From Thermoplasmata archaeon (lineage in GTDB: Archaea; Thermoplasmatota; E2; DHVEG-1), in NCBI GenBank assembly GCA_030640585.1, contig DAOWIZ010000029.1:1-17645 (forward strand): 17,645 nt of DNA. The letters are read 5' to 3'. The notes beneath the pieces were generated by a model. It did not search any database. It was not told the origin of the DNA and worked only from the letters and a program-made list of their open reading frames with translations. Numbering within the stretch: the first letter of the stretch is position 1; every line of letters begins with the position of its first letter. Of this stretch, positions 1,402 through 17,645 are shown piece after piece. Both the position numbers and the translations under genes were made by a program.

Positions 1402-1438
1402 CAAATTATCATCCACTGCATCAAAGAAAAACATTTTT

Positions 1439-1510
1439 AGCCCCGTAGTGTAGCGGTTAACATAAGAGACTCTGGATCTCTAGTCGCCAGTTCGAATCTG
1501 GCCGGGGCTG
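1439..1510 (+). tRNA. tRNA-Gln (anticodon CUG)
   Basis: Hand-folded cloverleaf. Acceptor stem AGCCCCG/CGGGGCT (A1-U72). D stem GTGT/ACAT. Anticodon stem AGAGA/TCTCT with loop CTCTGGA, giving anticodon CTG. T arm GCCAG-TTCGAAT-CTGGC. Discriminator G. No encoded CCA. Confidence 0.9.
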
Positions 1511-1544
1511 TGACTTACTCATTGGTTTGTTAGGTGAGATAATT

Positions 1545-3233
1545 ATGGATTCAAAAGAAAATGTATCTAAGGATTTCATACGTGAAATCATTGATGAGGA
1601 TTTGAAGACAAATAAATATGATGGTCGCGTACATACACGTTTTCCACCTGAGCCCAATGGTTATCTTCATATTGGTCATGCTAAATCTATTTGCCTGAAC
1701 TTTGGCATCGCTGGAGAATACAAGGGTTTGTGTAATCTTCGTTTTGATGATACTAATCCTGCAAAAGAGGAAGAGGAATACGTTAAATCAATTATCAATG
1801 ATGTTCAATGGCTAGGTTTTGATTGGGGTGATCGGCTTCTTTTTGCATCTGATTATTTTGATCAAATGTATAATTATGCTCTTGATCTAGTGAAAAAGGG
1901 AAAAGCCTATGTTGATGATCTAAGTGCTGAAGAAATCAGTTCCTATCGTGGTACTCTAACACATCCTGGAATAGACAGCCCACATCGCAATCGACCTATT
2001 GAAGAAAACATTGAACTATTTAAAAAAATGAAAGCAGGCGAGTTTGCAGATGGGAAAAAGGTTCTACGGGCAAAAATCGACATGTCTCATCCTAATTTGA
2101 ATATGCGTGATCCTATAATGTACAGAGTCCTGCATGCAAGCCATCATAGAACAAAAGATAAATGGTGTATTTATCCTATGTATGACTGGGCACACGGTCT
2201 TGAAGATTCTATTGAAAATATCACTCATTCTATTTGTACACTAGAGTTTGAAAACCATCGACCTTTGTATGATTGGTTCCTTGACAATCTTGGTGTTTAT
2301 CACCCGCAGCAGATAGAGTTTGCACGTCTTAATCTCACATATACTGTTATGAGTAAACGAATGCTGCTAGAACTGGTTGAAGAAAAACATGTCAAAGGAT
2401 GGAATGACCCGCGTCTACCAACAATTAGTGGAATGAGACAACGTGGTTATTCACCTGCATCAATTAGGAATTTCTGCAGTCGCATAGGTGTTGCAAAGGT
2501 AAATAGCATCGTTGATTTCGCATTTCTTGAATACTGTGTCAGAGAAGATTTGAATAAGACCTGTAATCGGTTTATGGGCGTTCTAAACCCATTAAAAGTA
2601 GTCATCGAGAACTATCCCAAGGACAAAGTAGAAGAGTTTGAAGCAGTAAACAATCCAGAAGACCCTAAAGCTGGGAAACGAAAAGTTCCATTTACTAAAG
2701 AACTATATATTGAACAAAATGATTTTATGGAAGACCCTCCAAAGAAGTTCTATCGATTGACACCAGGAAGAGAGGTAAGATTCAGATATTCATATCTAAT
2801 AACCTGTCAAGAAGCAATTAAAAAAGATGGAAAAATAGTAGAACTTCGTTGTACTATTGACCCAGAGACACACGGTGGCTATGCATCTGATGGACGACGT
2901 GTCAAATCAACAATTCACTGGGTTTCAGCACCTAATGCAATTGATGCAGAAGTCAATCTTTATGATAGATTGTTCACAGTAAAAAACCCTGCAGGTCAAA
3001 AAGATAAAAACTTCAAAGAATTCCTGAATCCTAAATCACTTGAGATACTCACAAACTGTAAAGTAGAGCCGGCCGTACAAAAGTTGAAACCGTTTGACAG
3101 ATTCCAATTTGAACGGCTTGGATATTTCTGCATAGACCAAAATACAACAGATAAAAAACTTATAATTAATAGAACTGTAACTCTCCGCGATACATGGGCA
3201 AAAATACAGAAACAGCAACAAAACAAAAAATAA
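1545..3233 (+). CDS. glnS: Glutaminyl-tRNA synthetase (class I, bacterial-type)
   Basis: Collinear along its whole length with E. coli GlnS as I recall it. Shared blocks include [26 protein letters not shown] (HIGH), [38 protein letters not shown] (KMSKS variant), GW.DPR.PTISG.R.RGY and FQFER.GYFC. I prefer the ATG at 1545, which has GGTGA 7 nt upstream, over the track's in-frame TTG at 1527. There is no eukaryote-type N-terminal extension. Confidence 0.93.
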
Positions 3234-3335
3234 AAAATTTTTACCAATAAAGATGAAAATTATAAATATTATACTTTTATTCCGGTCATTATCAACACCG
3301 TAACAATCAATAGATATAAATATCAAATTTTATTT

Positions 3336-3406
3336 AGCCCTGTGGTGTAGTGGTAACATACTGGCCTTTGGAGCCTGCGTCAGCGGTTCAAATCCGCTCA
3401 GGGCTG
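3336..3406 (+). tRNA. tRNA-Gln (anticodon UUG)
   Basis: Hand-folded cloverleaf. Acceptor stem AGCCCTG/CAGGGCT (A1-U72). D stem GTGT/ACAT. Anticodon stem CTGGC/GCCTG with one U-U mismatch, and loop CTTTGGA giving anticodon TTG. T arm AGCGG-TTCAAAT-CCGCT. Discriminator G. A T6 run follows at 3407-3412. Confidence 0.85.
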
Positions 3407-3418
3407 TTTTTTCCATTT

Positions 3419-3493
3419 GCTCCCGTGGTGTAGTCCGGTCAATCATTCCAGCCTTTCGAGCTGGCTACACGGGTTCGAATCCCGTCGGGAGCA
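3419..3493 (+). tRNA. tRNA-Glu (anticodon UUC)
   Basis: Hand-folded cloverleaf. Acceptor stem GCTCCCG/CGGGAGC. Anticodon stem CCAGC/GCTGG with loop CTTTCGA, giving anticodon TTC. T arm ACGGG-TTCGAAT-CCCGT. Discriminator A. The D-arm sequence GTGTAGTCCGGTCAATCAT is archaeal-looking. It starts 12 nt after tRNA-Gln(UUG). Confidence 0.9.
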
Positions 3494-4759
3494 TACCTCC
3501 GCACTCCTGTTGTTTCCATTCGAAACAGGGGTTTTTTCAGGTGTTTTTAAAATTAAGCCATTTTCTTGTCCCACATTATATGTATTTTTGTGGAATTTCA
3601 AGATGGCTTTAATCCAATCATAAGACGCATTGCGATAATATTGCTTTGCGTATCTTACATAATCCTCTGTTGTACCGACTTTGTCATGCCCAAGCCATTC
3701 TTTTACATCCCATATGTCCCAGTGTTTGGTTTCTACCTTGCTTTTGATTAGTCTTGCTATTGCACACCAGTGTCTCATTATGTATGGATGATAGTAGTTC
3801 CATACTGGTTTGACGTTTTGATTAAGATATTTTCCCAGATATGCTCTTGTGAATGGTCTACCATTTGGTTGTATATAGAGATAGTCTTCGCTGTATTGAT
3901 TTGCTACTTTTGGTCTCCAGTGTTCGATCCAGTTTTTCATACTTTTACGTCTGAGATTAGTCATTAGGTCTTTTTCTGGAAAAATCTGTCTCGGCTGTCC
4001 ATTCTTTTTTGACTCTGTAATAATGATATAGCCATCGTCAAGGAACACATCGCTTACTTTTTGAATTATTATTTCACTTGGTCTCCACCCTATTGTAAAA
4101 CCATGAGCTAAAATGTACTGTATCAGTGCGTTTTTGTATAGATTCTTTGAGTATTTATGCTGGATTAGTTGATAGGTTGTGTTTGGTAGTGGTACAATTT
4201 TTACTTTTGGTTTCGGCGGACTCGGTGGTATGTATCCCCAGAGTTTTGCATCTATTCCATATGCTTTTGCAAATGTTTTCACTGTTTTCCATTCATTGAT
4301 TATCTGAAATTTTCCTCTTTCGTTTTTGTATTCTTGGTATTCTTTGTATTCAAGATATGCTATGATCTGATTTGTGTTTAATTCAAACCAGTTTACTGGA
4401 AAAATGCTGTGTTCTGCCATTTTTTTAGCGTAGCGTAGCCTGTCTTTGATGGTTCTTTCGTTTTTTCTGTACTTAAATATCCACCAGTGTTTGATCGCGT
4501 CAAATAGTTCTTCTTGTGTTTCATATTGTTCTGGATCTATAATATATGGGTTTTTGATTTTTTCAACATCTAATTTTCTTATATTTTGCTTTGCTTCACC
4601 CATTTCCTCCACAACTGTTTGTGTGGTTTTTTGCTCGAAATGTTTTTGGCATATATTTTCTAAAATTTGTTTCCATTCTTGGTTTCTACCTCCTTTCAAT
4701 TCATTTTTTGGATTGGTTTGAATCGAATTGTATGTGTTGTTAATAGTTGTATTTATCAT
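3443..4759 (-). CDS. Tyrosine recombinase / phage-type integrase
   Basis: 438-aa ORF with a C-terminal catalytic domain. Motifs: GWRPSE (Arg I), YIMRHWCAIA (box with Arg II) and WLGHDKVGTTEDYVRY, which matches the XerC/D-like pattern LGH....TT..Y carrying the nucleophile Tyr. The last 51 nt (3443-3493) are antisense to tRNA-Glu. The stop codon TGA is the reverse complement of 3443-3445. Confidence 0.8.
   Translation of the reverse strand: MINTTINNTYNSIQTNPKNELKGGRNQEWKQILENICQKHFEQKTTQTVVEEMGEAKQNIRKLDVEKIKNPYIIDPEQYETQEELFDAIKHWWIFKYRKNERTIKDRLRYAKKMAEHSIFPVNWFELNTNQIIAYLEYKEYQEYKNERGKFQIINEWKTVKTFAKAYGIDAKLWGYIPPSPPKPKVKIVPLPNTTYQLIQHKYSKNLYKNALIQYILAHGFTIGWRPSEIIIQKVSDVFLDDGYIIITESKKNGQPRQIFPEKDLMTNLRRKSMKNWIEHWRPKVANQYSEDYLYIQPNGRPFTRAYLGKYLNQNVKPVWNYYHPYIMRHWCAIARLIKSKVETKHWDIWDVKEWLGHDKVGTTEDYVRYAKQYYRNASYDWIKAILKFHKNTYNVGQENGLILKTPEKTPVSNGNNRSAEVCSRRDSNPCSQLERLE
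3504..3537 (+). terminator. Hairpin plus T6 tract just downstream of tRNA-Glu
   Basis: CTCCTGTT (3504-3511) pairs with AACAGGGG (3524-3531), and TTTTTT follows at 3532-3537. The structure lies inside the C-terminal tail of the antisense integrase ORF. Confidence 0.4.
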
Positions 4760-6242: not shown

Positions 6243-7190
6243 TCAATATATAACAAAAGGAATATCTAATTTTTCAACTATTTCTTTATATCGATTCCGA
6301 ACAGTTACTTCGGTAACACCTGCGACATCAGCAACCTCTCGTTGTGTTCGTCGTTCTCCACAAAGAACTGATGCGATGTACAAAGATGCTGCAGCGTTTC
6401 CTGTTGGCCCTCGCCCAGTAATCAATGCTTTCTCGGCTGCAAGTTTTAATATCTCCATTGTCTTGACTTGAACTTCATTACTAAGTTTTAATTCACTGCA
6501 GAACCGAGAAATATAATCCTCAGGCAAAGTAGGAAGGAGCTTCAGTTTGAGTTCCTTTGCAATAAACCGGTAGTTTTTCCCAATTTCTTTTCTTTTAATA
6601 CGAGATATCTCACTCATCTCATCTAACGTCCGTGGTATATGACATTGCCGACATGCTGCATATAATGCTGCTGCAGCAACACCTTCGATGCTTCTACCAC
6701 GTATAAGATTTTTCATTGCTGACTTTCGATAAATCATGGCAGCTGTTTCACGAACTACTCTAGGAAGCCCCAAACTAGAAGCCAGCCGATCCAGATTAGA
6801 CAATGCAAGTGCAAGGTTTCTCTCAGTGCCATCTGCTATACGTATTCGACGTTGCCATTTTCTAAGTCGGTATAACTGTGCACGATTTCTAGTTGGAATC
6901 GTTTTTCCGTATGAATCTTTGTTACTCCAATCAATTTCAGTGCTTAATCCTTTATCATGAATTGTATATGTCATGGGTGTACCAGTACGCGACCTTTTTT
7001 CCCGTTGATCTCCATCGAATGCGCGCCATTCAGGCCCATGATCAATAAAATCTTCATCTATTACAAGACCACAGTCCTCACACACCAACTCAGCTCTTGA
7101 ATAATCTTTTGACAGGTGGGTGCTCCCACATCCAGGGCATCGAACAATTTCTTCGATACTTTGTTTTTCTTTTTTAGCTAAGTAAATCAA
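6243..7190 (-). CDS. tfb: Transcription initiation factor IIB (TFB)
   Basis: N-terminal Zn ribbon CPGCGS...VCEDCG, then GPEWRAFD, B-linker and two cyclin-fold repeats ([57 protein letters not shown]). It is collinear with Pyrococcus TFB as I recall it. The only in-frame start is the TTG at 7190, so the start call is less certain than the gene call. Confidence 0.93.
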
Positions 7191-7345
7191 CTCCTAAGTA
7201 TGATTTTGAATAATTCGAATAGTTCATAGACATTAGAAAAAATAGAATCATATAAGGTATATTTAACTATCCATGGGAAAATGCTGTTTAATTTAGTTAT
7301 TTTTGATGATAATTCTTATTAGCGTCACCATGTTATCTGGCTAAT

Positions 7346-8416
7346 ATGAAAATCAAATCAATTTCAGCTTACCCGTTAGACCTTAGATTAAAAGAGCCTT
7401 TCGTAATTGCAAATGAGACAATGGAAATAGGTGAAAATGTTTTTTTTAAAATTGAAACTGATGAAGACATTACTGGATGGGGTTGTGCAACACCAGACAG
7501 TGTTACATCTGAAACAAAAGATACTGTAATTGATAATTTCAATAAAATAGTTAAAAATATTTTAATTGGACAGGATCCAACAAGAATCCATTTTTTAAAT
7601 GATGTTATTGAAGATAAAATAAAGGGTAATCCTTCGTTAAGAGCAGGTATTAATATGGCTCTTTATGATATTCTTGGAAAGAAGGCAGATATGCCCTTAT
7701 TTAGACTTCTTGGAGGGTATAGAGATAAAATTGAAACCTCTATAACAATTGGTTTGAACCCAGTTGATGTCATGGTAGAAAAAGCCAAGGAACTTGTTTC
7801 TCAAGGATTTACTTGTCTCAAAGTAAAATGTGGAATGGATCCAGACCAAGATATTGAAGTAGTACTTGCGATAAGGAGCACAGTTGGCCCAAATATAAAA
7901 ATCCGCTTAGATGCAAATGAGGGTTACACTCTTGAAAAAGCCTTACGTGTGATTGAAACACTCGAGAAACTAGGAACAGATATCGAAATGCTTGAACAAC
8001 CAACTCCAGCTAAATATTTATATGCTTTAAAGGAAGTAACAGCACAATGTCCAGTTCCGATCATGGCTGATGAAACAGCTCTTACTCTTAGAGACAGTCT
8101 TAAAACCGTTAAAATGGAAATAGCAGATATGATTAATATTAAACTTATGAAAATCGGAGGGATTACAAACGCCATCAAAGCAAACACTTATGCAGAAATT
8201 GCAGAAATTCCTGTGATGATAGGTTGTATGAATGAATCAATGGGCGCTATGGCCGCGGGGGTACATTTTGCCTGTGCTTTTAAAAATGTACAATATGCTG
8301 ACTTAGATTCTGCCTTAGATTTTGAAAAAGATATAGTAAAAGGCGGAGCTACTTATAAAGATGGATTTGTCATTCCATCAAATAAACCAGGACTAGGAAT
8401 AGAGGTTGATTTGTAA
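7346..8416 (+). CDS. Enolase-superfamily racemase/epimerase (dipeptide epimerase / N-acyl-amino-acid racemase-like, MLE subgroup)
   Basis: 356-aa ORF with KxK (CLKVKCG), metal ligands in RLDANEGY, LEQP and MADE, and a second catalytic Lys in NIKLMKIGG. This is the MR/MLE pattern seen in L-Ala-D/L-Glu epimerases. Confidence 0.85.
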   Translation: MKIKSISAYPLDLRLKEPFVIANETMEIGENVFFKIETDEDITGWGCATPDSVTSETKDTVIDNFNKIVKNILIGQDPTRIHFLNDVIEDKIKGNPSLRAGINMALYDILGKKADMPLFRLLGGYRDKIETSITIGLNPVDVMVEKAKELVSQGFTCLKVKCGMDPDQDIEVVLAIRSTVGPNIKIRLDANEGYTLEKALRVIETLEKLGTDIEMLEQPTPAKYLYALKEVTAQCPVPIMADETALTLRDSLKTVKMEIADMINIKLMKIGGITNAIKANTYAEIAEIPVMIGCMNESMGAMAAGVHFACAFKNVQYADLDSALDFEKDIVKGGATYKDGFVIPSNKPGLGIEVDL

Positions 8417-9766
8417 GTGAAAAAAAGTTATAATGATGTTCTTGATGATGTTCCATCTTATAGTCGTTTTTTAAAGGTAGATGAAATTGATAATTTAGTG
8501 AATCTAATAATAAAATTACCTGGTGTAAAACATAAGGTTATAGGCAAGTCATTAAACGATGAACCACTAGTAATGCTTGATATTGGAAAAGGGGAAAAAA
8601 CTGCATTGATAATTGGAGTGCCTCATAGCGATGAACCACTCGGTAGTTTGGTTATAACATTTTTTTCTCGTTGGCTTGCAACGCATCCTGAAAAAGAAAA
8701 TTTTGGTTGGAGATGGCTATTCATACCTATGCTTGAAAGACGAGGAATGCGACTAAATGAGGGATGGTTCAATATGCCCGAGTCATTAGCAGATATGGCA
8801 AAATCTAATTTTAGAGAACCAACTGAGGATCAATATGAATGGACATTTCCAATTCAATATAACGATTATGAATGGACAAAATCTAGACCCGAAACAATTG
8901 CTGTAAAAAATGTACTTGAGCAAGAAAAACCAGATCTGTTATGCAACCTTCATCATTGTGGTTTTCATAATGCATATTATTATCTTAGTGAAGATTTTCC
9001 TGAAATTTATCCTAAACTAAGGAAACTTGCATCTAATCTAAGAATGTCTTTATCAGATACAGCACCTGATGTTCCATTTGGAAAAATGTTTTCCCCAGGT
9101 TTTTATCAGATGTATGGATTAAAGGATTATCTTGATTATTATAGTAAAAAAGATCCAATTGTATTAACTACAATAAAAAGAGGTGCCTGTAGTGACGAAT
9201 GGTATCAAAAACAAATTGGAGGGTTCAGTTTCAACTGTGAAGTACCAATGTATTTATCATCAAAACTACAGGATATAAAACCATCAGATAAAAGTTATAA
9301 AAAAGTAATGGAAGGACGTTATCGTATAAAGAAAAATAGACTAAAATACTCAATCAGACTAATAAACATTATAAAAGACTATTCAGACCTAGCCGATCCC
9401 CTTCTTCTAAATGTTGCTGAAAAACATATAGCAAATGCCCAAAACTCTTTAGACCATGAAAAAAGAGCTTTAAAGGTTACTGAAGGCAAAATAGCATCAA
9501 ATGCAGAAGTTTTTGAAAATGAAGTAATTGTAGATTTATTTGGCATATTCTTTCTTGGCCAAATATGGCGTGTCGCAGAAAGCATTTGTATTAAAGGTAG
9601 TACTCCTACAATATGTCAATTAATGGAAACAGCAGATATTGAAATTAAATCTCTCGGAAAAAGTGTCGAAGAAAGAGGAGCGTTTTATCATATCCCGATA
9701 CGAAATTCAGCAAAAATGCAACTGGGAAGCATCTTGCTCATATCTGATGCATTAAAAAGAAAATAA
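8417..9766 (+). CDS. M14 carboxypeptidase / AstE-AspA-like zinc hydrolase family protein (putative)
   Basis: 449-aa ORF. Its GTG start immediately follows the epimerase stop (TAAGTG), with GAGGT 10 nt upstream. It carries an HxxE zinc motif in IIGVPHSDEPLGS and a distal His in CNLHHCGF. The assignment rests on motifs only. Confidence 0.55.
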   Translation: MKKSYNDVLDDVPSYSRFLKVDEIDNLVNLIIKLPGVKHKVIGKSLNDEPLVMLDIGKGEKTALIIGVPHSDEPLGSLVITFFSRWLATHPEKENFGWRWLFIPMLERRGMRLNEGWFNMPESLADMAKSNFREPTEDQYEWTFPIQYNDYEWTKSRPETIAVKNVLEQEKPDLLCNLHHCGFHNAYYYLSEDFPEIYPKLRKLASNLRMSLSDTAPDVPFGKMFSPGFYQMYGLKDYLDYYSKKDPIVLTTIKRGACSDEWYQKQIGGFSFNCEVPMYLSSKLQDIKPSDKSYKKVMEGRYRIKKNRLKYSIRLINIIKDYSDLADPLLLNVAEKHIANAQNSLDHEKRALKVTEGKIASNAEVFENEVIVDLFGIFFLGQIWRVAESICIKGSTPTICQLMETADIEIKSLGKSVEERGAFYHIPIRNSAKMQLGSILLISDALKRK

Positions 9767-9767
9767 T

Positions 9768-9850
9768 CTCCCCTTCCCTAATTATTCATAAGTATACGAT
9801 GAATAACTCTCTGCTGGGGAGGTAGATGTTGATCTTCGAGCTACTTTTTT
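9768..9850 (+). terminator. Nested hairpin plus T6 tract downstream of the epimerase/hydrolase pair
   Basis: Outer stem CTCCCC (9768-9773) pairs with GGGGAG (9816-9821). Inner stem TTATTCAT (9782-9789) pairs with ATGAATAA (9799-9806). TTTTTT lies at 9845-9850, and a second small hairpin plus T6 lies at 9871-9895. Confidence 0.35.
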
Positions 9851-10128
9851 ATAAGGACAATGTTCAAACACAACATTAGGTGTTGCACGTTTTTTCACAA
9901 GATTTTGTAGTTTCTTCGTATAATCTTCTTTGCATTTATTCTTATTCTCCTGCATGGTTCTCTCCTATATATGTTCATTCTTCCTCTTATGAGAAGATGA
10001 TATTCTGTAATATTGTATCTGCCTCTGTTTCTATTTATATGGTTTTTGGTATAAAATATCAAAATGGCATTTTATCATTAATTTGGTTTCATGGAAACCT
10101 TTTTGAACGCCCTCCAGATGCGGCCATT

Positions 10129-10602
10129 ATGTATGATGCTGGTGTTATCCGAAGAGCAACAATCCATGATCTCCCAGAGATTATAAAGTTGGAACAGAAA
10201 TGCTTTCACACGAATAGTGCATATACTCCCAAGCAATTGCTCTATCTCATCACTCGAGCTAATAGCAATTGCCTATTACAGCAACTAAACCATTCTATTC
10301 AAGGGTCCATTATTGTACTGTATAAACAAGGATCAGAAGTTGCCGGCATCGAAACCATAAGTGTCGATCCTCATTGTCGCGGTCAAGGCATTGGGAAAAG
10401 ACTCCTTGGCGCCGCTGAGAAGGACATGATATACAGAGGGATACAAAAAATCCGTCTCGAAGTTTCTATCGGAAATTTCCCAGCAATACAACTCTATCAA
10501 AAATCCGGTTTTAGAATAACAACGATTTTAAAGGACTATTACACCTATGAGAAATATGGCAGTCATGATGCGTATCGAATGATTAGAGAATTAACTACGT
10601 AG
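10129..10602 (+). CDS. GNAT family N-acetyltransferase (RimI-like)
   Basis: The acetyl-CoA binding core reads ISVDPHCRGQGIGKRLL, with downstream LEVSIGNFPAIQLYQKSGF. I place the start at the ATG at 10129, giving 157 aa. The track's upstream 83 aa from the GTG at 9880 are hydrophobic junk with no GNAT-like sequence. Confidence 0.8.
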   Translation: MYDAGVIRRATIHDLPEIIKLEQKCFHTNSAYTPKQLLYLITRANSNCLLQQLNHSIQGSIIVLYKQGSEVAGIETISVDPHCRGQGIGKRLLGAAEKDMIYRGIQKIRLEVSIGNFPAIQLYQKSGFRITTILKDYYTYEKYGSHDAYRMIRELTT

Positions 10603-12045
10603 CACTTCTTTCTCATTTTTATGAACAGAAACCCAGTTGTTATCATCAAGAACACAATATCCTAAAGTATATTGCTCCAAGATATGCAAAAGTTGTTTTC
10701 TGAGATGAAATGGAATGAGCGAGAGATCGCATGTTTCTTTGTTCATATGAATTTTTTCCACATGATCAACAGGTTTATAATTTTGATTATTACCTATAAG
10801 ATAAAAAGAATGATTTTTCTCATCCTGATCAAGTCTTAATTTTAATGGATCAACCTGACTCAGAAAAGATTCAATATTTTCGTTTTTAAAGTTCATTATT
10901 TTTGGATTTGCTTTATTAGCTAATAGAAAAAGTAAAACACCCATACATTTTGAACATGTTCCACATGGTACAATCCTATTATTTTCAAAATGACATGAAT
11001 GGCATGATCGTTGAAACCTTGCAAGTTTCGGGTAATGCTTAACAAGTATTTTTTCCACAACTAAGCCAGATATATTTCTAACTGCTGACCATTGATGCAA
11101 ATCGGGTATTCTTTTAGTATACCAATTATTCATAATATTATCATAATCCTGATGTTGGTCATATATTCCATAAAAATGTTTAATTCCAAGATATTCTAGA
11201 GTGGATCTTAAATCATCAAATTCACTACCAATAAGAAGATTGCCTATTTTTTTATCAACAAATATTGGTAATAACAAAAAAACATAAAATGGAAAAATGC
11301 ACAATCGAATGGGATACGTATCAGCCCATATTTTCCTATGATCAGATCTGATAAATTTTAAATTATCAAGCATAAAAACATAAAATCGGTCAACATTTGT
11401 CCAAACACGATAAGTGTTTGAATCAATTTTTTTATGATATCTATAAGCAGGAATAGCAGTTCTCCAGTGGCCTCCACTTTCATTTATATACAAAGGATAT
11501 GTATTGCATCCTATCTCATTTAATAGACCATAGGTTAAAAGGCTTTCTTTACCCCCGCTAGAGAGAATACCACAGCTATTCTTGTCCACATCTGGTGAAA
11601 TTATTTTATCATTGTAAACTTGAGATGGTTCAATTATTGCTTTTGAATTAGCATCCTCAGGTTTTACATCTTCTTGTTTCGGAAGGAAATCTGAAAGAAT
11701 ATAGTTAGTTCTTCTTCGCAGTATCTTATTTACAAAAATATCTCTGCTAAAAATTCTATTTAACTCGTTTAAAATATTATAATCTGTTTTACTTATGGGA
11801 AAATTCAATTTGAACTTTTTTGAAAATAAACCATAATTTAAAAGTGGCATTGTAAAAGCAAGTCGTAATAGTGGAAGAGAGTCATCTTTAACTTTTTCTT
11901 GATATTTTAGCATAATTGAAAAAGCAGATTCATCGCCCTCTGTTTTATTTAGAAATATATTTGTTTTAACACTTTTACCATTAATTATTGGTTCTGAAAT
12001 TTCAATTGAAGAAAAGCAAACCATATCAGGTATTTTACCTGACAT
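10591..12045 (-). CDS. Uncharacterised PP-loop (adenine nucleotide alpha-hydrolase) superfamily protein with C-terminal Cys cluster
   Basis: PP-loop-like CGILSSGGKESLLTYG sits mid-protein. A QueC-like cluster CHSCH-x9-CGTCSKC lies near the C-terminus. I place the start at the ATG at 12045, preceded by GGAGGA at 6-nt spacing. This start overlaps the upstream DUF1611 gene by 11 nt. Confidence 0.7.
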   Translation of the reverse strand: MSGKIPDMVCFSSIEISEPIINGKSVKTNIFLNKTEGDESAFSIMLKYQEKVKDDSLPLLRLAFTMPLLNYGLFSKKFKLNFPISKTDYNILNELNRIFSRDIFVNKILRRRTNYILSDFLPKQEDVKPEDANSKAIIEPSQVYNDKIISPDVDKNSCGILSSGGKESLLTYGLLNEIGCNTYPLYINESGGHWRTAIPAYRYHKKIDSNTYRVWTNVDRFYVFMLDNLKFIRSDHRKIWADTYPIRLCIFPFYVFLLLPIFVDKKIGNLLIGSEFDDLRSTLEYLGIKHFYGIYDQHQDYDNIMNNWYTKRIPDLHQWSAVRNISGLVVEKILVKHYPKLARFQRSCHSCHFENNRIVPCGTCSKCMGVLLFLLANKANPKIMNFKNENIESFLSQVDPLKLRLDQDEKNHSFYLIGNNQNYKPVDHVEKIHMNKETCDLSLIPFHLRKQLLHILEQYTLGYCVLDDNNWVSVHKNEKEVLRS

Positions 12046-13084
12046 TAAGTTCCTCCAAAAAATCAACGATTTTACTAACACTGTCACTCAAAGGTTCAAT
12101 TACAGGGACATTGAAAAATTTCTTCAGTTTTATTTTTGCATTTTTAATATCTTGTTTATCCATATTCTCACGATTTATACCTATTCCTAATAAGGGTTTC
12201 TCAGTTAGTATCTCTGCAATTTTGACAACCCTCTGAGGATCTGGCATTGGATAGTCTGGAAAACCATCAAGATGAGGTCTTTTTGGAGCATCAACAAGTA
12301 TAAAACCATCTATTTTCCCAGCAGCTAATATCTCAAAACCACCTGGGAAAAAAGGATGGACTAGACTTCCTTGTCCTTCAATAATTATAATATCTGGTCT
12401 TAAATCATTCCAAGAATCAATAATTGCACCTTCGATTCCGCCAGCCACAAAATCATTAATCATAGCATCAAGGACAATACCATGAGGCCAACCCTGGATC
12501 CACCCAGTTTGGCCAGTATATACCATGTCAGTTTTTCTACCTCTTTTCTTTAGTTCTTCATTTATCATAACTGCTATAGTTCTTTTCCCAATAGCAGAAT
12601 CAGTTCCCAAAATTGCAATACGAGTTGATTTAACATCTTTGATATTACCTGTATAAAATCTTTTATGATCACGAAATATCTTTCTTACATCTGTAATTAT
12701 ACAATCATTTTTTTTTGCGAGTTTTTCAAACACAGGATCTTCTGATATGAACTGATGAAGACCAGATACAACATCGAGACCTTTTTCAAGAGCCCAAATA
12801 ACAGCTTTATCATAGCCTTCAGGTAAAACACCTCCCTCTGAGACAGCTCCAATAATAAAAGTATTTACATCTGATTTACTATATGCTTTACCAAGATCAT
12901 TATAAAGAGGTATATTTCTTTTTATACCATCTAAAATTTCACCTGAATCACCTTCAATAAGTGTAGTATCAACAACACATGTTACATCAAATCTTTTACT
13001 ATATCTAACAAGACCATGAGCAGTTTTTCCATCAGCGCAATTAAAAAGCCGATCTGCGTAAACAATAGCACGTTTTTTAGACAT
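12035..13084 (-). CDS. DUF1611 family P-loop protein (DgcN-like)
   Basis: 349 aa, the typical DUF1611 length. Remembered family blocks are present: AHGLVRY, VSGLH, a Walker-A-like ILGTDSAIGKRT, TGQTGWIQG and IIEGQGSLVHP. The ATG at 13084 is preceded by GGGGGGAGGT. Confidence 0.78.
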   Translation of the reverse strand: MSKKRAIVYADRLFNCADGKTAHGLVRYSKRFDVTCVVDTTLIEGDSGEILDGIKRNIPLYNDLGKAYSKSDVNTFIIGAVSEGGVLPEGYDKAVIWALEKGLDVVSGLHQFISEDPVFEKLAKKNDCIITDVRKIFRDHKRFYTGNIKDVKSTRIAILGTDSAIGKRTIAVMINEELKKRGRKTDMVYTGQTGWIQGWPHGIVLDAMINDFVAGGIEGAIIDSWNDLRPDIIIIEGQGSLVHPFFPGGFEILAAGKIDGFILVDAPKRPHLDGFPDYPMPDPQRVVKIAEILTEKPLLGIGINRENMDKQDIKNAKIKLKKFFNVPVIEPLSDSVSKIVDFLEELNVR

Positions 13085-13122: not shown

Positions 13123-14253
13123 TTACTTTCTCCCCGTCAAAATAATAACATATCGATCATTAGGTAATGGATCTTTTTTATGTTTTTCTAAAAGTGCAAT
13201 AAGACCGGCAGTGGAAGCAGGTAACACACTAAGTCCCTCTTTTTCCCGTAGTTTTTTCGAAAAAAACATCATATTTTTATCACTAGCATAAGCACCCCAT
13301 CCACCAGATTCTCTAATAGCCTCAAGAGCATAATCACCATCAATAGAACGCCAGTTAATCAAAGGTTCATTGATGGCAGTTTCATGAATTTTTTTTGGAG
13401 ATAGATCCTCACAAGCAGAAAGATTTTTCAAAAAGGCTTGAATAATAGGGTTTTTTCCAAAAGATGAGCCAGCTATTATCCTAGGAATCTTAGATGTTTT
13501 ACCACGTCTATAAAGACTAACAAAACCTTTGTACACTCCAGCAAGGGTAGTACCATTAGAAACAGGCATTGCCACAACAGCTGGTGCATCACGCAATTCA
13601 TCATAAATCTCATAGGCTATCTCACCATATGCACGGAGTTGAATCATAGTATTCTCCCCGCCAGCATTAGCATCATAATACTCTTTTTTATCAGCCATTT
13701 CCTGAGAGACGTTCACCGCGTTTTCATAATCTCCAGTTACACGAATAATTCTTGCACCATTCTCTTCAATTTCTTTAATTCTACTGGTATGATATTTTTC
13801 AGGGATATATATCTCACATTCTATCCCTGAAATAGCTGCAGCAAGAGAAATTGCAGCTCCATAATTTCCACAAGTAGCAACGGTAACAGTATCGTAACCT
13901 CTTCTTAATGCATCCATAACTTGAGCAAAAGCAATACGATCTTTCTGAGTACCCGTTGGTGTTGTTCCTTCGAATTTTAAAAAAATTTGACGAAGACCAA
14001 ACTCACGTTCAATATTTCGAGCACGAGTAAGATTAGTGTCACCAATCTCAGAGTCAATAATGTCCTCCAAAGCTTCTAATCTTTCTTCTAGAGGTCGGGT
14101 TGTATTAGTAGCGATTTTTCTCTGAGACTCAAGATCTAGTGCAATAAGTGGAAACTGAGAACGAGCACCATCTAAAATAGATAAGATAGGTTCATCGTTA
14201 CTATTATTTACGGTTTTTACATTGTTATTGTTTTTTTGTTTTTTTTCATGCAT
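13123..14253 (-). CDS. PLP-dependent enzyme, fold type II (threonine synthase / Trp-synthase-beta-like)
   Basis: PLP-lysine block LKFEGTTPTGTQKDRIA (compare NPTGSFKDR). Also ATCGNYGAA, SNGTTLAG and a C-terminal ILTGRK. About 80 aa at the N-terminus, including a poly-Asn stretch, have no match I recognise. It sits 38 nt upstream of the DUF1611 gene on the same strand. Confidence 0.82.
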   Translation of the reverse strand: MHEKKQKNNNNVKTVNNSNDEPILSILDGARSQFPLIALDLESQRKIATNTTRPLEERLEALEDIIDSEIGDTNLTRARNIEREFGLRQIFLKFEGTTPTGTQKDRIAFAQVMDALRRGYDTVTVATCGNYGAAISLAAAISGIECEIYIPEKYHTSRIKEIEENGARIIRVTGDYENAVNVSQEMADKKEYYDANAGGENTMIQLRAYGEIAYEIYDELRDAPAVVAMPVSNGTTLAGVYKGFVSLYRRGKTSKIPRIIAGSSFGKNPIIQAFLKNLSACEDLSPKKIHETAINEPLINWRSIDGDYALEAIRESGGWGAYASDKNMMFFSKKLREKEGLSVLPASTAGLIALLEKHKKDPLPNDRYVIILTGRK

Positions 14254-14388
14254 AATAAAGCCACTAAACTAAGCATCTCTAGCAAAATTTATTTAATAAA
14301 AATATCGAAGTAGGGTTACTTAAAACTTACGAGCATAGCAAGGTATAATAATCCCTTGAAAGTTATCTCCCATTTGTAGGTGGGTAGT

Positions 14389-14802
14389 ATGAGAAAGATG
14401 TCTGCAAAGTTTGGAAATAATGCCGGGAAAATATGGGTTGCATTAAGCACTCATGGACCACTAACACAATCAACACTTATTAAAACTACAAAATTAACAA
14501 AAAATGATTTTCATACAGCAATTGGATGGCTCGCCAGAGAAAACAAGATCTGCAAAGAAGGGGAGATATACAAACTTGGAGAAACAAATCTAACAAATAA
14601 AATCGGAGAAGATGCAGGAAAAATATGGAAACTAATCGATTCTCATGGAGAAATCGATATATCATCAATTACAAAAGAGGCTGAAATAACAATCTATGAT
14701 GCTTATTTTGCTCTTGGATGGCTTGCCCGTGAGAATAAAATAGACGGGGAAAAAATTAGAAAGAATTCAACCCAACTTAAATTTAAGCTAGAATATGATT
14801 AA
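14389..14802 (+). CDS. Tandem DUF2582-type winged-helix protein
   Basis: Two copies of the module AGKIW...(HTH)...GWLARENKI, at nt 14422-14550 and 14614-14742. I prefer the ATG at 14389, with GGTGGG upstream, over the track's GTG at 14380. Confidence 0.72.
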   Translation: MRKMSAKFGNNAGKIWVALSTHGPLTQSTLIKTTKLTKNDFHTAIGWLARENKICKEGEIYKLGETNLTNKIGEDAGKIWKLIDSHGEIDISSITKEAEITIYDAYFALGWLARENKIDGEKIRKNSTQLKFKLEYD

Positions 14803-15143: not shown

Positions 15144-15749
15144 TTATTTACCTTTTCTATGCCATTTGAATAAACGGTGATAGTTATCATACCGTCTCAG
15201 TCTTCTTGCAGGGAATATAGTTGCGGTCCCAACAGAACGGATGTCTTCAACTGAGTAGAATGCATTTGGATTGAATCTTTCAATACATTTTATAACTGTG
15301 TTAAGGTTTTCTCGGCGTATCACAGTAAAAATAATTTTTACTTGTCCTTTTACCCCTTCAGCGTCGACCGTGGTTAATCCATATTTTTCTGATTTAAGAT
15401 GGTTAATCAATTTCGTTGCATCTCGTTTTGTTATGATGCGGATCATTACAAGTCCAATTGATAATTTCTCCTCAGCCAGAAGTCCTACAAGAGTCCCTGT
15501 AGCAAAACCACCTGCATAAAACAAGTAATAGTAAACATTAGTTAGATTTTGCATAATTTGACCAATAGCAAGAAGCCATATCAATATCTCAAAAAATCCA
15601 ATCATTGGAGCCAGATATTTTACTCCTTTTGAAACCAATATGATGCGAAGTGTGCCAAGGCTAACATCACAAACACGGGCAAGAAAGATAAGAATCGGGA
15701 GTATAACCCATGCATAGAGCTCCGGACTGGAAAGTGTAAATAATTCCAT
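15144..15749 (-). CDS. UPF0316 family membrane protein with DUF2179 C-terminal domain
   Basis: 201-aa ORF. The N-terminal membrane part carries DVSLGTLRIILVSKG, GFFEILIWLLAI and YAGGFATGTLVG. A soluble C-terminal domain follows. This matches the UPF0316 (YebE-like) pattern as I recall it. Confidence 0.78.
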   Translation of the reverse strand: MELFTLSSPELYAWVILPILIFLARVCDVSLGTLRIILVSKGVKYLAPMIGFFEILIWLLAIGQIMQNLTNVYYYLFYAGGFATGTLVGLLAEEKLSIGLVMIRIITKRDATKLINHLKSEKYGLTTVDAEGVKGQVKIIFTVIRRENLNTVIKCIERFNPNAFYSVEDIRSVGTATIFPARRLRRYDNYHRLFKWHRKGK

Positions 15750-16097: not shown

Positions 16098-17645
16098 ATG
16101 ATAGCTGGACAACAACCAATAATTATTTTAAGAGAGGGAACTCGAAGAGAGAAAGGAAAAGGCGCACAATTAAACAACATCATGGCAGCATGCGCTATAT
16201 CTGACGCTGTAAAATCGACACTTGGTCCGAAAGGAATGGACAAAATGCTCGTTGACTCGATGGGTGACGTCGTTGTAACAAACGATGGAGCAACTATTTT
16301 GAAAGAAATAGACGTGGAACATCCAGTTGCAAAAATGATTGTAGAAGTAGCTAAATCCCAAGATGAAGAGTGTGGTGATGGAACTACGACCGCAGTTATT
16401 TTGACTGGGGAGCTATTAAAAGGCGCGGGAGAATTAATCGATCAAAATATTCATCCGACTGTTATCTGCGGTGGATATAAACTCGCAGCGGAAAAAGCAG
16501 TTAAAACACTGAATGAACTGGCTGTATCAATAAAATCAGGAGATAAAAAAACACTGAGAGATATAGCTATGACTTCTATGGCTAGTAAAAGTGCTAGCGC
16601 AGAGAAAGACATCCTTGCAGACATTGTTGTAGATGCTGTAACTGATGTCGCAGAGACAACCAATGGTAAGACAATTGTTGATCTTGACAACATCCAAATC
16701 CAGAAGAAACAAGGTGGCGGAATAGCAAATACCGAGATAATCAAAGGTATTATTCTTGATAAAGAACGAGTCCACGAAGGAATGCCAAAGCACGTCAAGA
16801 ATGCAAAGATAGCGCTTGTAAACGCTGCACTTGAGATAAAAAAGACTGAAGTAGATGCAAGAATTCAAATACAAGATCCTGCACAACTTCAAGCTTTCTT
16901 GGATGAAGAAGAAGGCATGCTCAGAAAGATGGTTGACAAAGTCAAAAAGAGCGGTACAAATGTCCTTATCTGTCAAAAAGGAATTGATGACATTGCACAG
17001 CATTACTTAGCAAAAGAGGGAATCTATACTGTAAGACGTGCTAAGAAAAGCGACATGGAAAAATTATCAAAAGCAACTGGTGCAAAAATAGTTGCAAATC
17101 TCGATGATTTAAGCCCAAATGATCTTGGTAATGCTGGTAATGTTGAGGAGAAAAAAATCGGCGATGACAAGATGACATTCATCACTGATTGTAAGAACCC
17201 GAAAGCCGTATCGATACTAATCCGTGGTACTACAGAGCACGTTGTAGATGAACTTGAACGTGGACTACATGATGCACTTTCAGTCGTAAAGGTTGCCCTT
17301 GAAGATGGTAAAATGACTGCTGGAGGAGGTGCCGCTGCGATATCTATCTCAATGGCTCTTCGAGACTACGCACCTTCTGTTGGAGGGCGAGAGCAGATGG
17401 CAATTGAGGCATTTGCAAATGCAATTGAAATAGTTCCAAAGACACTCTCACAAAATGCGGGACTTGATCCGATTGACATGATGCTAGCGATCAGAAGCGC
17501 ACATAAAAAAGGAAACAAATATGCCGGCATAGATGTGTTTAGCGGAACTGTCACTGACATGATGAAAAACAACGTCATAGAACCACTACGGGTAAGTCTT
17601 CAGGAGATCCAGGCAGCCTCTGAGGCAGCAACAATGATGTTGAGA
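16098..17645 (+). CDS. ths: Thermosome subunit (group II chaperonin), 3'-truncated by the window edge
   Basis: This gene is absent from the ORF track because there is no stop codon in the window. The frame is open for 516 codons from the ATG at 16098, with AGGAGG 11 nt upstream. My translation gives [45 protein letters not shown], a central VPGGGA-type TAGGGAAA, and EPLRV...[11 protein letters not shown] at the end. The four antisense track ORFs between 16170 and 17578 are shadows of this gene. Confidence 0.93.

Follow-up and report, generated by a model that had tools for sequence, protein, structure and literature searches.

Murein peptides are recycled in Escherichia coli by YcjG, an L-Ala-D/L-Glu epimerase (AEE), together with the M14 amidase MpaA, and in Bacillus subtilis by YkfA-D. 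The N-succinylamino-acid racemase (NSAR) pathway (Geobacillus kaustophilus; Bacillus cereus NSAR, PDB 2P88) is an irreversible D-to-L conversion. The D-glutamate pathway of DgcN and DgcA, reportedly described by Yu et al. in 2023 (ISME J 17:537), pairs a DUF1611 protein with an enolase-superfamily “dipeptide epimerase”. Here, we analyze a cluster of six genes that recalls each of these systems, on contig DAOWIZ010000029.1 (assembly GCA_030640585.1) of a Thermoplasmata archaeon; the whole 17,645-nt contig, read on its forward strand, is referred to as the window. As judged by gene order across phyla, the six genes are one conserved system, which may serve to invert the alpha-carbon of an amino acid.

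For D-acidic amino acids, DgcN is reported to be the central gene in a racemization route that is irreversible (PMC12363236), and the DgcN–DgcA pathway of D-glutamate is cited in passages of PMC12363236 and PMC10845958; the role of AEE in murein-peptide recycling is likewise touched on in a passage of PMC3605383. A further point of comparison is the MurD2–MurL pair of Xanthomonas, an alternative pathway to peptidoglycan. MurL is an ATP-dependent peptidyl-glutamate epimerase that acts on the C-terminus of a peptide in the L-to-D direction only; it needs ATP/Mg, releases AMP and is unidirectional, with adenylation of the alpha-carboxylate proposed as the mechanism, and reviews state it to be without known conserved domains (PMC5808125, PMC8788868). 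Our full-text literature searches returned no paper describing the gene set of the window, and in its logic this set, not described in the literature searched, is a variant of the known D/L conversion pathways.

The window has a GC content of ~34% and contains a TFB gene (6243–7190), and the nearest relatives of its proteins come from uncultured Thermoplasmatota metagenome-assembled genomes (MAGs) of the SG8-52, M8B2D, and “Thermoplasmatales archaeon” kind; the host is archaeal. Three of the six genes lie on the plus strand: an enolase-superfamily enzyme of the dipeptide-epimerase type (hereafter EPI; 7346–8416, 356 aa, Pfam MR_MLE_N and MR_MLE_C), a putative, highly divergent zinc hydrolase of the M14 fold whose C-terminal domain is helical (M14-like protein; 8417–9766, 449 aa, GTG start), and a GNAT acyltransferase (10129–10602, 157 aa, Pfam Acetyltransf_1, 8e-16). 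Converging on them, the minus strand carries genes for a ThrC-like fold-type II pyridoxal phosphate (PLP) enzyme (13123–14253, 376 aa, Pfam PALP, 1.5e-56), a DUF1611 protein of the DgcN family in the broad sense (12035–13084, 349 aa, Pfam DUF1611_N (PF17396) and DUF1611 (PF07755), E-values 1e-55 and 6e-22), and a MurL-like PP-loop (QueC-like) enzyme (10591–12045, 484 aa; the open reading frame (ORF) extends to a GTG at 12087). Because the PLP gene lies upstream of the DUF1611 gene and the MurL-like gene follows it, we read the three as an operon, PLP > DUF1611 > MurL-like, in which the 11-nt overlap of the MurL-like ATG with the DUF1611 stop indicates translational coupling. The convergent GNAT and MurL-like genes overlap by 12 nt at their 3′ ends.

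In the first-pass annotation of this DNA, EPI, the hydrolase, the GNAT, and the DUF1611 protein had been proposed as a functionally linked set. Its observation that the epimerase stop codon abuts the GTG of the hydrolase is correct (TAA at 8414–8416, GTG at 8417). The GNAT and DUF1611 genes it placed nearby are both real, but the GNAT start as listed (9880) is wrong, the true start being the ATG at 10129, which fits the 155–165 aa of the orthologs. The four-gene set is real as well, but two partner genes had been overlooked, namely the MurL-like gene within its bounds and the PLP gene just outside them, and it is these two that are the tightest partners of the DUF1611 gene.

With the DgcN–DgcA pathway, the window shares a DUF1611 protein, an enolase-superfamily “dipeptide epimerase”, and the scheme of N-acylation, alpha-carbon inversion, and deacylation. 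Here, however, the DUF1611 and EPI genes are not adjacent, the DUF1611 protein is partnered by a MurL-like protein with which it forms a fusion in some genomes, the set includes a GNAT and a ThrC-like PLP enzyme, EPI has a glutamate at position 24, and the scores fall far below both equivalog cut-offs. The resemblance to MurD2–MurL consists in a remote MurL homolog encoded beside an amino-acid N-acylating enzyme and, by analogy, in a proposed one-way inversion driven by adenylation, whereas there is no Mur ligase here, the archaeal hosts are wall-less or have an S-layer, and the substrate cannot be a UDP-MurNAc-peptide. Like YcjG and MpaA, the window pair would combine an enolase-type dipeptide epimerase with a translationally coupled, cytosolic M14-fold zinc hydrolase. 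In contrast to that pair, EPI has Glu24 in place of Arg24, the hydrolase is an extremely divergent M14 protein with an extra helical domain in which the N144/R145 motif is unaligned, a creatininase domain takes the hydrolase slot in bacterial-type operons, and the neighbors are not murein-related. Finally, a GNAT acyltransferase, an enolase-superfamily racemase, and a metallo-deacylase are encoded together in the NSAR pathway as in the window, but EPI keeps a DxD motif that NSAR is without, the hydrolase is M14-like rather than M20, and the DUF1611, MurL-like, and PLP enzymes are added.

Conservation of the gene set in archaea and bacteria

A collection holding one genome per species was scanned with the MurL-like family, which yielded at least ~590 related loci. 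The best 80 of these (from Thermoplasmatota, Bathyarchaeia, Aciduliprofundum, Thermococcus, and Thermoprotei), together with the window and related contigs, made up 86 mostly archaeal loci, in which ORFs were called and searched with the six window proteins and all neighbors, viewed within 10 kb around each match, were clustered without prior labels. Only six families recurred in this unlabelled clustering, and they were those of the window: MurL-like (85/86 loci), DUF1611 (83/86), PLP enzyme (66/86), GNAT (58/86), and EPI and M14-like (28/86 each); the next commonest neighbor family was found in at most 13 of the 86 loci. The DUF1611 gene adjoins the MurL-like gene in 83 of the 86 loci, as does the GNAT gene in 58, where it is convergent or co-directional with it. 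Two relatives whose M14-like proteins are 76% and 66% identical to that of the window hold all six genes in the same arrangement, with both flanks different. The EPI and M14-like genes are paired in 28 of 28 loci, abutting or overlapping by 4–11 nt, and across the 86 loci the pair is found solely beside the other four genes.

Within this pattern, the arrangement varies. The pair occurs in Bathyarchaeia in another order and orientation, sometimes with a second PLP gene copy adjoining, which in three of these loci (L039, L044, and L050) lies directly upstream of the pair. Thermococcus carries PLP > DUF1611 > MurL-like > GNAT, all on one strand. A full variant, with a long PLP enzyme plus hydrolase plus EPI, can be told from a short archaeal variant that consists of a ~325-aa PLP enzyme, DUF1611, MurL-like, and GNAT, and that has neither a hydrolase nor an EPI gene within 10 kb. 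One archaeal MAG, MFD02923.bin.2.77, has two copies of the core (L050 and L064), one with the EPI–M14 pair and one without.

The MurL-like family is rare. A search of 1.84 billion representative proteins with the window protein found 209 relatives, among them a DUF1611::MurL-like fusion (P0138), several fusions of a MurL-like protein to a creatininase-family amidohydrolase, and one to a methyltransferase. The contig of P0138 reads PLP > DUF1611::MurL-like > creatininase > enolase epimerase, and a second locus (L085) reads DUF1611 > MurL-like::creatininase > epimerase. Scanning metagenomes with the fused proteins added 80 further loci, for 81 metagenome loci (GC 36–71%). Wherever the contig was long enough, a single strand carries PLP > DUF1611 > MurL-like::creatininase > EPI; the flanks are unrelated, and across the 81 loci no further neighbor is conserved. 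Sigma-54 activators, DksA, and an outer-membrane barrel are among the neighbors, indicating that at least some of these fused-type loci are bacterial. The predicted hydrolase slot is thus occupied by an M14-like protein or by a creatininase domain. One fused-type operon (L140) contains two inserted genes, one for a 446-aa protein with an AlaDh_PNT_N domain and an unknown one of 310 aa (6587–7927 and 10364–11296), which is a possible clue to the substrate. AlaDh_PNT_N-type domains are found in some opine and saccharopine dehydrogenases.

Since the synteny survives full turnover of the flanking genes and crosses domains, a chance neighborhood was rejected, and the functional link between EPI, hydrolase, GNAT, and DUF1611 that had been supposed from the window alone gains support from synteny across phyla. 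The first-pass annotation had also raised the concern that the DUF1611 gene might be tied only to its own operon partners. In the fused-type loci, EPI shares an operon with DUF1611, from which we conclude that EPI belongs to the pathway of DUF1611. No peptidoglycan hydrolase, peptide transporter, peptidase, or regulator is conserved beside the cluster in the 86 mostly archaeal and 81 fused-type loci. Between the window and the fused-type operons, identity is 59–68% for the PLP enzyme, 44% for EPI, and 41% for DUF1611, which makes the PLP enzyme, by sequence identity, the best conserved component. Three of the component families, the MurL-like PP-loop protein, this DUF1611 subfamily, and the divergent M14 protein, are without a described function.

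The MurL-like protein

The 484-aa MurL-like protein has no Pfam match. It contains an SSGGKES PP-loop motif and the conserved cysteines C362, C375, C378, and C381, and its AlphaFold2 (AF2) model (pLDDT 91.7, pTM 0.90) has, as its first 28 neighbors in a Foldseek search of the PDB, PP-loop ATP pyrophosphatases throughout (QatC, NcsA/TtuA, Cap9, QueC, LarE, and argininosuccinate synthase). QueC, QatC, and Cap9, the best structural matches, have the same nucleotide-binding PP-loop fold and, like it, a metal site of the Cys4 type; they differ in that TM-scores on the query reach 0.25–0.36, in the extra N- and C-terminal domains of the MurL-like protein, and in that neither a deazaguanine nor a defense context is present here. 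A role in defense, which the QatC and Cap9 neighbors might suggest, was rejected because none of the six proteins has a PADLOC match and the context is metabolic.

The sole NCBIfam match of the window protein is MurL (NF041275; E-value 0.006, 15.1 bits vs. a cut-off of 700). MurL is also matched by 6 of 20 members of the family, one member of which has one other match (E-value 0.007). A more distant, bridging family of proteins matches the same model at 1e-6 to 6e-12, and HHalign aligns the MurL-like and bridging families over 385 columns with a probability of 100% and an E-value of 1.5e-39. From these profile comparisons, we consider the MurL-like protein to be remotely homologous to the MurL superfamily, and our results assign MurL, with its relatives, to the PP-loop enzymes. 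The bridging-family genes (L092–L095), surrounded by genes of purine biosynthesis, share operons with a gene for a D-Ala-D-Ala-ligase (Ddl)-like ATP-grasp enzyme and with one resembling radical-SAM enzymes or lysine aminomutase, and so form a further MurL-like system. Taken with MurD2 beside MurL and DUF1611 in the present cluster, the Ddl-like ligase of these operons suggests that MurL-type genes recur beside a gene for an amino-acid N-acylating enzyme. In none of the 86 and 81 loci was a Mur ligase found, and the hosts of the 86 are mostly archaea.

The DUF1611 protein, the PLP enzyme, and the GNAT

Against the NCBIfam DgcN model (NF041892), the DUF1611 protein scores 167.2 bits (cut-off 480). 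Its PDB matches are 2G0T, 7XRJ, and 2OBN, and its Walker A motif (G160-TDSAIGKRT, to T169) is invariant. The nearest homologs in plasmid records, from Vibrio and Aliiroseovarius, are 37–39% identical, vs. ~30% for annotated DgcN. In both records, the DUF1611 gene overlaps a PLP gene of the alanine/ornithine-racemase family (Vibrio parahaemolyticus plasmid, L087, 6866–9180; Aliiroseovarius plasmid, L089, 6845–9216), and this two-gene unit is not annotated as DgcN. A plasmid of Halorussus halophilus (NZ_CP044524.1, L090, 4917–12894) carries NlpC/P60 > DUF1611 > dipeptide epimerase > HTH > prolyl oligopeptidase beside DacB and an oligopeptide ABC transporter (Opp), and, judged from this gene content, is a much clearer archaeal candidate for murein-peptide salvage than the window cluster. 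With Alr-type racemase, dipeptide epimerase, and MurL-like partners, DUF1611 genes thus appear to accompany three unrelated kinds of enzyme that invert the alpha-carbon.

The PLP enzyme scores above the cut-off of the NCBIfam “threonine synthase” model PRK06381 (434 vs. 266) and below that of canonical thrC (TIGR00260; 107.6 vs. 167), and its best PDB matches are ThrC structures at ~1e-27. The lysine K104 is invariant and aligns with Lys61 of Thermus thermophilus ThrC, and the TCGNYG loop is nearly invariant. T88, S155, and R160 of the T. thermophilus enzyme, which we take to be phosphate ligands, correspond to Y, A, and Q in the PLP enzyme.

For the GNAT, the RimI model (TIGR01575) gives 75.3 bits (cut-off 86.4), and Ard1 of Thermoplasma volcanium (4PV6) matches at 37 bits. 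A housekeeping Ard1/RimI role was rejected given this low similarity to Ard1 and the co-directional position of the gene within the operon in Thermococcus and in one further locus (L004). For DgcN, DgcA, AEE, MurL (as an equivalog), AstE/AspA, and RimI alike, agreement with the window proteins stops at the superfamily level, short of the respective family assignments.

The epimerase and the M14-like hydrolase

The best PDB sequence matches of EPI are the dipeptide epimerases 3JVA of Enterococcus faecalis (4e-68) and 1JPM/1TKK of B. subtilis (3e-67), followed in third place by the N-succinyl-Arg/Lys racemase 2P88 (NSAR). Among NCBIfam models, the Thermotoga-type L-Ala-D/L-Glu epimerase NF041118 is the best (240.8 bits vs. 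a cut-off of 500), and NF011708 (118 vs. 343) and the DgcA model NF042940 (159.6 bits vs. 400) are likewise below their cut-offs. Models of o-succinylbenzoate synthase (OSBS) and muconate cycloisomerase, enzymes with which the first-pass annotation had allowed that EPI might group, score it lower than the AEE model, again all below cut-off, and by its PDB and NCBIfam matches EPI is of the dipeptide-epimerase type.

The catalytic lysines K159/K161 and K266 and the metal ligands D189, E217, and D242 of EPI align with their counterparts in B. subtilis AEE, and none of them varies among the 29 archaeal and 68 bacterial-type orthologs compared. Also invariant is D319-L-D321, a DxD motif that is absent from NSAR 2P88 and in AEE binds the alpha-ammonium of the dipeptide (bioRxiv 10.1101/2022.05.01.490185). 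In AEE, Arg24 on the capping loop binds the carboxylate of the substrate glutamate (bioRxiv 10.1101/2022.05.01.490185). EPI has a glutamate at this position, as have all 29 archaeal and 64 of the 68 bacterial-type orthologs, which argues against L-Ala-D/L-Glu as its substrate and suggests that the second residue of the substrate is cationic or at least non-acidic. The epimerase encoded beside DUF1611 on the Halorussus plasmid has a glycine at position 24 and keeps the DxD motif.

The M14-like protein barely exceeds the gathering cut-off of Pfam Peptidase_M14 (PF00246; 22.3 vs. 21.6 bits). Residues H70 and E73 (in HSDE), R133, R157, H179, H180, and E275 are invariant in 26 orthologs, down to 48% identity, which bears out the zinc-hydrolase motifs (HxxE…H) that had been picked out in the window. 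A single-sequence search of the PDB gave nothing credible (one chance-level match, E-value 0.99), and the family profile found carboxypeptidase M only (E-value 0.021). In this profile alignment, HSDE of the M14-like protein lies with HGDE of carboxypeptidase M and SRPET…NLH with the M14 “PET…H” that holds the third zinc ligand. The HSDE also aligns with the HGDE of one canonical archaeal M14 protein, but in HHalign of the family against that protein the HxxE region alone was aligned, with a probability of 6%. “NRNFP” of carboxypeptidase M, which includes the carboxylate-binding motif N144/R145, is aligned with “EW--TFP”, with a gap at N-R; the invariant R133 and R157 might substitute for this motif.

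The AF2 model of the M14-like protein has a pLDDT of 70, with active-site loops below 50, and residues 294–449 form a helical domain. In Foldseek, the model matched carboxypeptidases A/B (best E-value 2e-6, probability 1.0, TM 0.3–0.4), and the top 50 entries were M14 enzymes or complexes, bar one entry titled as an AAV8 capsid-receptor complex. There was no match to AstE/AspA in Pfam or NCBIfam (E-value ≤0.01), so that the AstE-like assignment made at first was dropped, and no match to MpaA. No obvious N-terminal hydrophobic, signal-like segment was seen by eye. The protein therefore reads as a cytosolic, very divergent M14-fold amidohydrolase with a putative zinc site predicted from its sequence.

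Proposed pathway and alternative readings

We tentatively propose, with a probability of roughly 35%, that the six genes are one module that inverts the alpha-carbon of an amino acid other than glutamate via N-acylated intermediates and at the cost of ATP, leaning toward D-to-L salvage. The DUF1611 protein, perhaps with the GNAT, would N-acylate a free amino acid, a reaction that DgcN carries out on D-Glu, and the MurL-like enzyme would then adenylate the N-acyl amino acid and invert its alpha-carbon one-way, as MurL does. A metallo-amidohydrolase (M14-like here, the fused creatininase domain in bacterial-type operons) would remove the acyl group or cleave the amide. EPI, translationally coupled to the hydrolase, could equilibrate a dipeptide-like intermediate with a free alpha-ammonium and a non-acidic, possibly cationic, second residue, and the ThrC-like PLP enzyme would supply or consume the amino acid. 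The proposed order of DUF1611, MurL-like, and amidohydrolase steps follows the DUF1611::MurL-like and MurL-like::creatininase fusions; each catalytic step, the substrate, and the direction we infer by analogy with characterized relatives. Activation of the carboxylate makes an N-acyl amino acid liable to lose its alpha-proton, which offers a rationale for pairing acylation with an adenylating epimerase. With the six genes belonging to a single system, it is plausible that they encode acylation, inversion, and deacylation alike, in line with what the first-pass annotation had supposed.

Several points weigh against this proposal. Two enzymes that invert the alpha-carbon, MurL-like and EPI, look redundant in one pathway, and the scheme leaves the roles of the GNAT and of the strongly conserved PLP enzyme unexplained. 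The MurL link is remote, at 15 bits directly, and convincing only through profiles, and PP-loop enzymes more often form amides, nitriles, or thio-groups than they epimerize. Many archaeal PLP–DUF1611–MurL-like–GNAT cores have no hydrolase or EPI within 10 kb, so deacylation would not be universal. Each molecule converted would also consume about three ATP equivalents, a high price for fermenters that live on little energy.

The direction is the point at which a competing account is closest, since D-to-L salvage fits DgcN and a peptide-degrading lifestyle, and L-to-D synthesis would fit MurL and a first gene of biosynthetic type. On the latter account, which we regard as possible if somewhat doubtful, the PLP enzyme would make a specific, possibly non-proteinogenic L-amino acid, DUF1611 or the GNAT would N-acylate it, the MurL-like enzyme would invert it irreversibly to the D-form, and the hydrolase and EPI would trim or adjust a product (a D-amino acid, an N-acyl-D-amino acid, or a dipeptide with a D-residue) that the cell uses. 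MurL runs from L to D only, the ThrC-like enzyme, of a biosynthetic type, is the first and most conserved gene (65% identity between archaeal and bacterial-type loci), and the operon stands by itself, without a transporter, peptidase, or regulator that is conserved beside it. Its presence not only in sediment lineages but also in Thermococcus and Aciduliprofundum from vents points the same way, and the DUF1611–racemase pairs of Vibrio and the roseobacter fit the formation of N-acetyl-D-amino acids. However, DgcN, the sole characterized DUF1611 protein, serves D-amino-acid catabolism, an amidohydrolase with a reversible dipeptide epimerase fits degradation or salvage more readily, and we know of no D-amino-acid-containing metabolite from these archaea. 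The MurL-like protein might instead be an ATP-dependent ligase that forms an amide or lactam, like QueC, asparagine synthetase, or beta-lactam synthetase, in a module that makes or repairs a small amide metabolite: beta- or gamma-replacement by the PLP enzyme would yield a pseudo-dipeptide, an amide or ring would be made and opened by the ligase together with the creatininase or M14 protein, and EPI would epimerize the dipeptide-like product. All leading structural neighbors of the protein are PP-loop enzymes forming C–N or C–S bonds, the Cys4 site is QueC-like, cyclic and small amides are the substrates of the creatininase family, the DxD motif of EPI requires a free ammonium, as a deprotected dipeptide would have, and one operon has gained the gene with the AlaDh_PNT_N domain (446 aa). 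Yet MurL is the only characterized homolog detectable by sequence, MurL-family genes already adjoin dedicated amide-forming enzymes, and no product can be named, which leads us to consider a ligase unlikely.

The model of the first-pass annotation, in which DgcN-like, DgcA-like or AEE, and MpaA- or AstE-like enzymes salvage D-Glu or murein peptides from bacterial walls to L-Glu, is favored by the fact that the closest characterized relatives of four of the proteins, DgcN, MurL, AEE, and MpaA (an M14 family member), all have D-Glu or glutamyl peptides from peptidoglycan as substrates. Peptides are degraded by the host lineages, and the Halorussus plasmid offers a precedent in its NlpC/P60 > DUF1611 > dipeptide epimerase genes beside DacB and Opp. 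In the present cluster, though, the near-invariant Glu24 in place of the carboxylate-binding Arg24 would repel a Glu side chain, and scores for DgcN, DgcA, AEE, and the MurL equivalog are all far below cut-off. The hydrolase matches neither AstE/AspA nor MpaA, the neighborhood holds no conserved gene for a murein hydrolase or a peptide transporter, and the DUF1611 protein is nearer to non-DgcN subfamilies. The model also leaves the MurL-like and ThrC-like core genes unaccounted for; D-Glu from bacterial walls thus appears a quite improbable substrate. Peptide C-terminal modification was considered as well, with a small ORF between the M14-like and GNAT genes (9782–9955, minus strand, 57 aa, basic, with an acidic C-terminus, …YTYE) as the scaffold or substrate that the MurL-like enzyme would adenylate or epimerize, the M14 protein trim, and the GNAT N-acetylate. 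MurL does act on a peptide C-terminus, M14 enzymes are carboxypeptidases, the GNAT is RimI-like, and the ORF is conserved in seven close relatives (52–59 aa, ending in DE, EE, or SED where the window has YE). It is restricted to these seven, however, and is absent from most six-gene loci (including L001 and L002), from all bacterial-type operons, and wherever the M14–GNAT gap is short. Its last residue is not invariant, and the dipeptide epimerase and PLP enzyme point to small molecules; its membership in the system is doubtful, and a scheme built on it is highly improbable.

Returning to the preferred reading, its core would be a DgcN-type N-acyltransferase that passes its N-acylated product to an ATP-consuming epimerase of the MurL type, to which it is fused in some organisms. 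With the unusual ThrC-like PLP enzyme, a new M14 or creatininase deacylase, and a dipeptide epimerase of new specificity, this core could constitute a one-way, energy-driven D/L converter widespread in archaea and present also in bacteria, an idea we hold as tentatively as the pathway itself. If true, this would be the first function of MurL-like enzymes outside peptidoglycan synthesis and would give first functions to the MurL-like PP-loop family, this DUF1611 subfamily, and the very divergent M14 family. It might also be a means for archaea of the subsurface and of hydrothermal sites to reuse or produce D-amino acids. These form a large, slowly turned-over pool in sediments and also build up through racemization in hot or energy-starved habitats. 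Their handling by the archaea dominant in such places (Thermoplasmatota, Bathyarchaeia, and Thermococci) is poorly known. The cluster is a concrete candidate. Annotation pipelines would label the genes “threonine synthase”, “dipeptide epimerase”, or “hypothetical protein”, hiding the system, which the self-contained four-gene operon of the fused type, at least partly bacterial, makes tractable.

Other features of the window

A membrane protein with DUF5698 and DUF2179 domains (Pfam; 15144–15749, minus strand) is weakly associated with the cluster. Such a protein is found near it in eight archaeal loci, and YitT+DUF2179 or DUF5698 proteins lie directly after or close to EPI in 11 fused-type loci (e.g. 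L122, 4274–5149, and L105, 1965–2570); it may be a dedicated transporter. The gene at 14380–14802 (plus strand), divergent from the PLP gene, encodes two DUF2582 winged-helix domains; since relatives do not keep it in this place, a dedicated regulator is improbable. A regulatory RNA in the 362-nt gap between the M14-like and GNAT genes was rejected, as the gap holds the small ORF on the opposite strand and Rfam found three tRNAs only in the window. A scan for promoters and terminators stayed at chance level, its consensus being of the bacterial type and uninformative for an archaeon.

The left part of the window contains a gene that is unusual in archaea, for a full-length glutamine–tRNA ligase (GlnRS; 1527–3233, TIGR00440, 739 bits). 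On its flanks lie tRNA-Gln(CTG) at 1438–1511, tRNA-Gln(TTG) at 3335–3407, and tRNA-Glu(TTC) at 3418–3494. A 438-aa tyrosine integrase follows (3443–4759, minus strand), the end of its gene overlapping the 3′ end of tRNA-Glu (3443–3494). The region from 1438 to 4759 may be a horizontally acquired GlnRS/tRNA set or the remnant of an integrated element. That the six genes are cargo of a mobile element was rejected: no second att copy lies within the window and the right flank is partly syntenic with relatives, for which reasons the cluster is treated as chromosomal. At the right end, a thermosome (group II chaperonin) gene (16098–17645, plus strand) runs off the window, and the minus-strand ORFs listed at 16451–17003 are spurious shadows of it.

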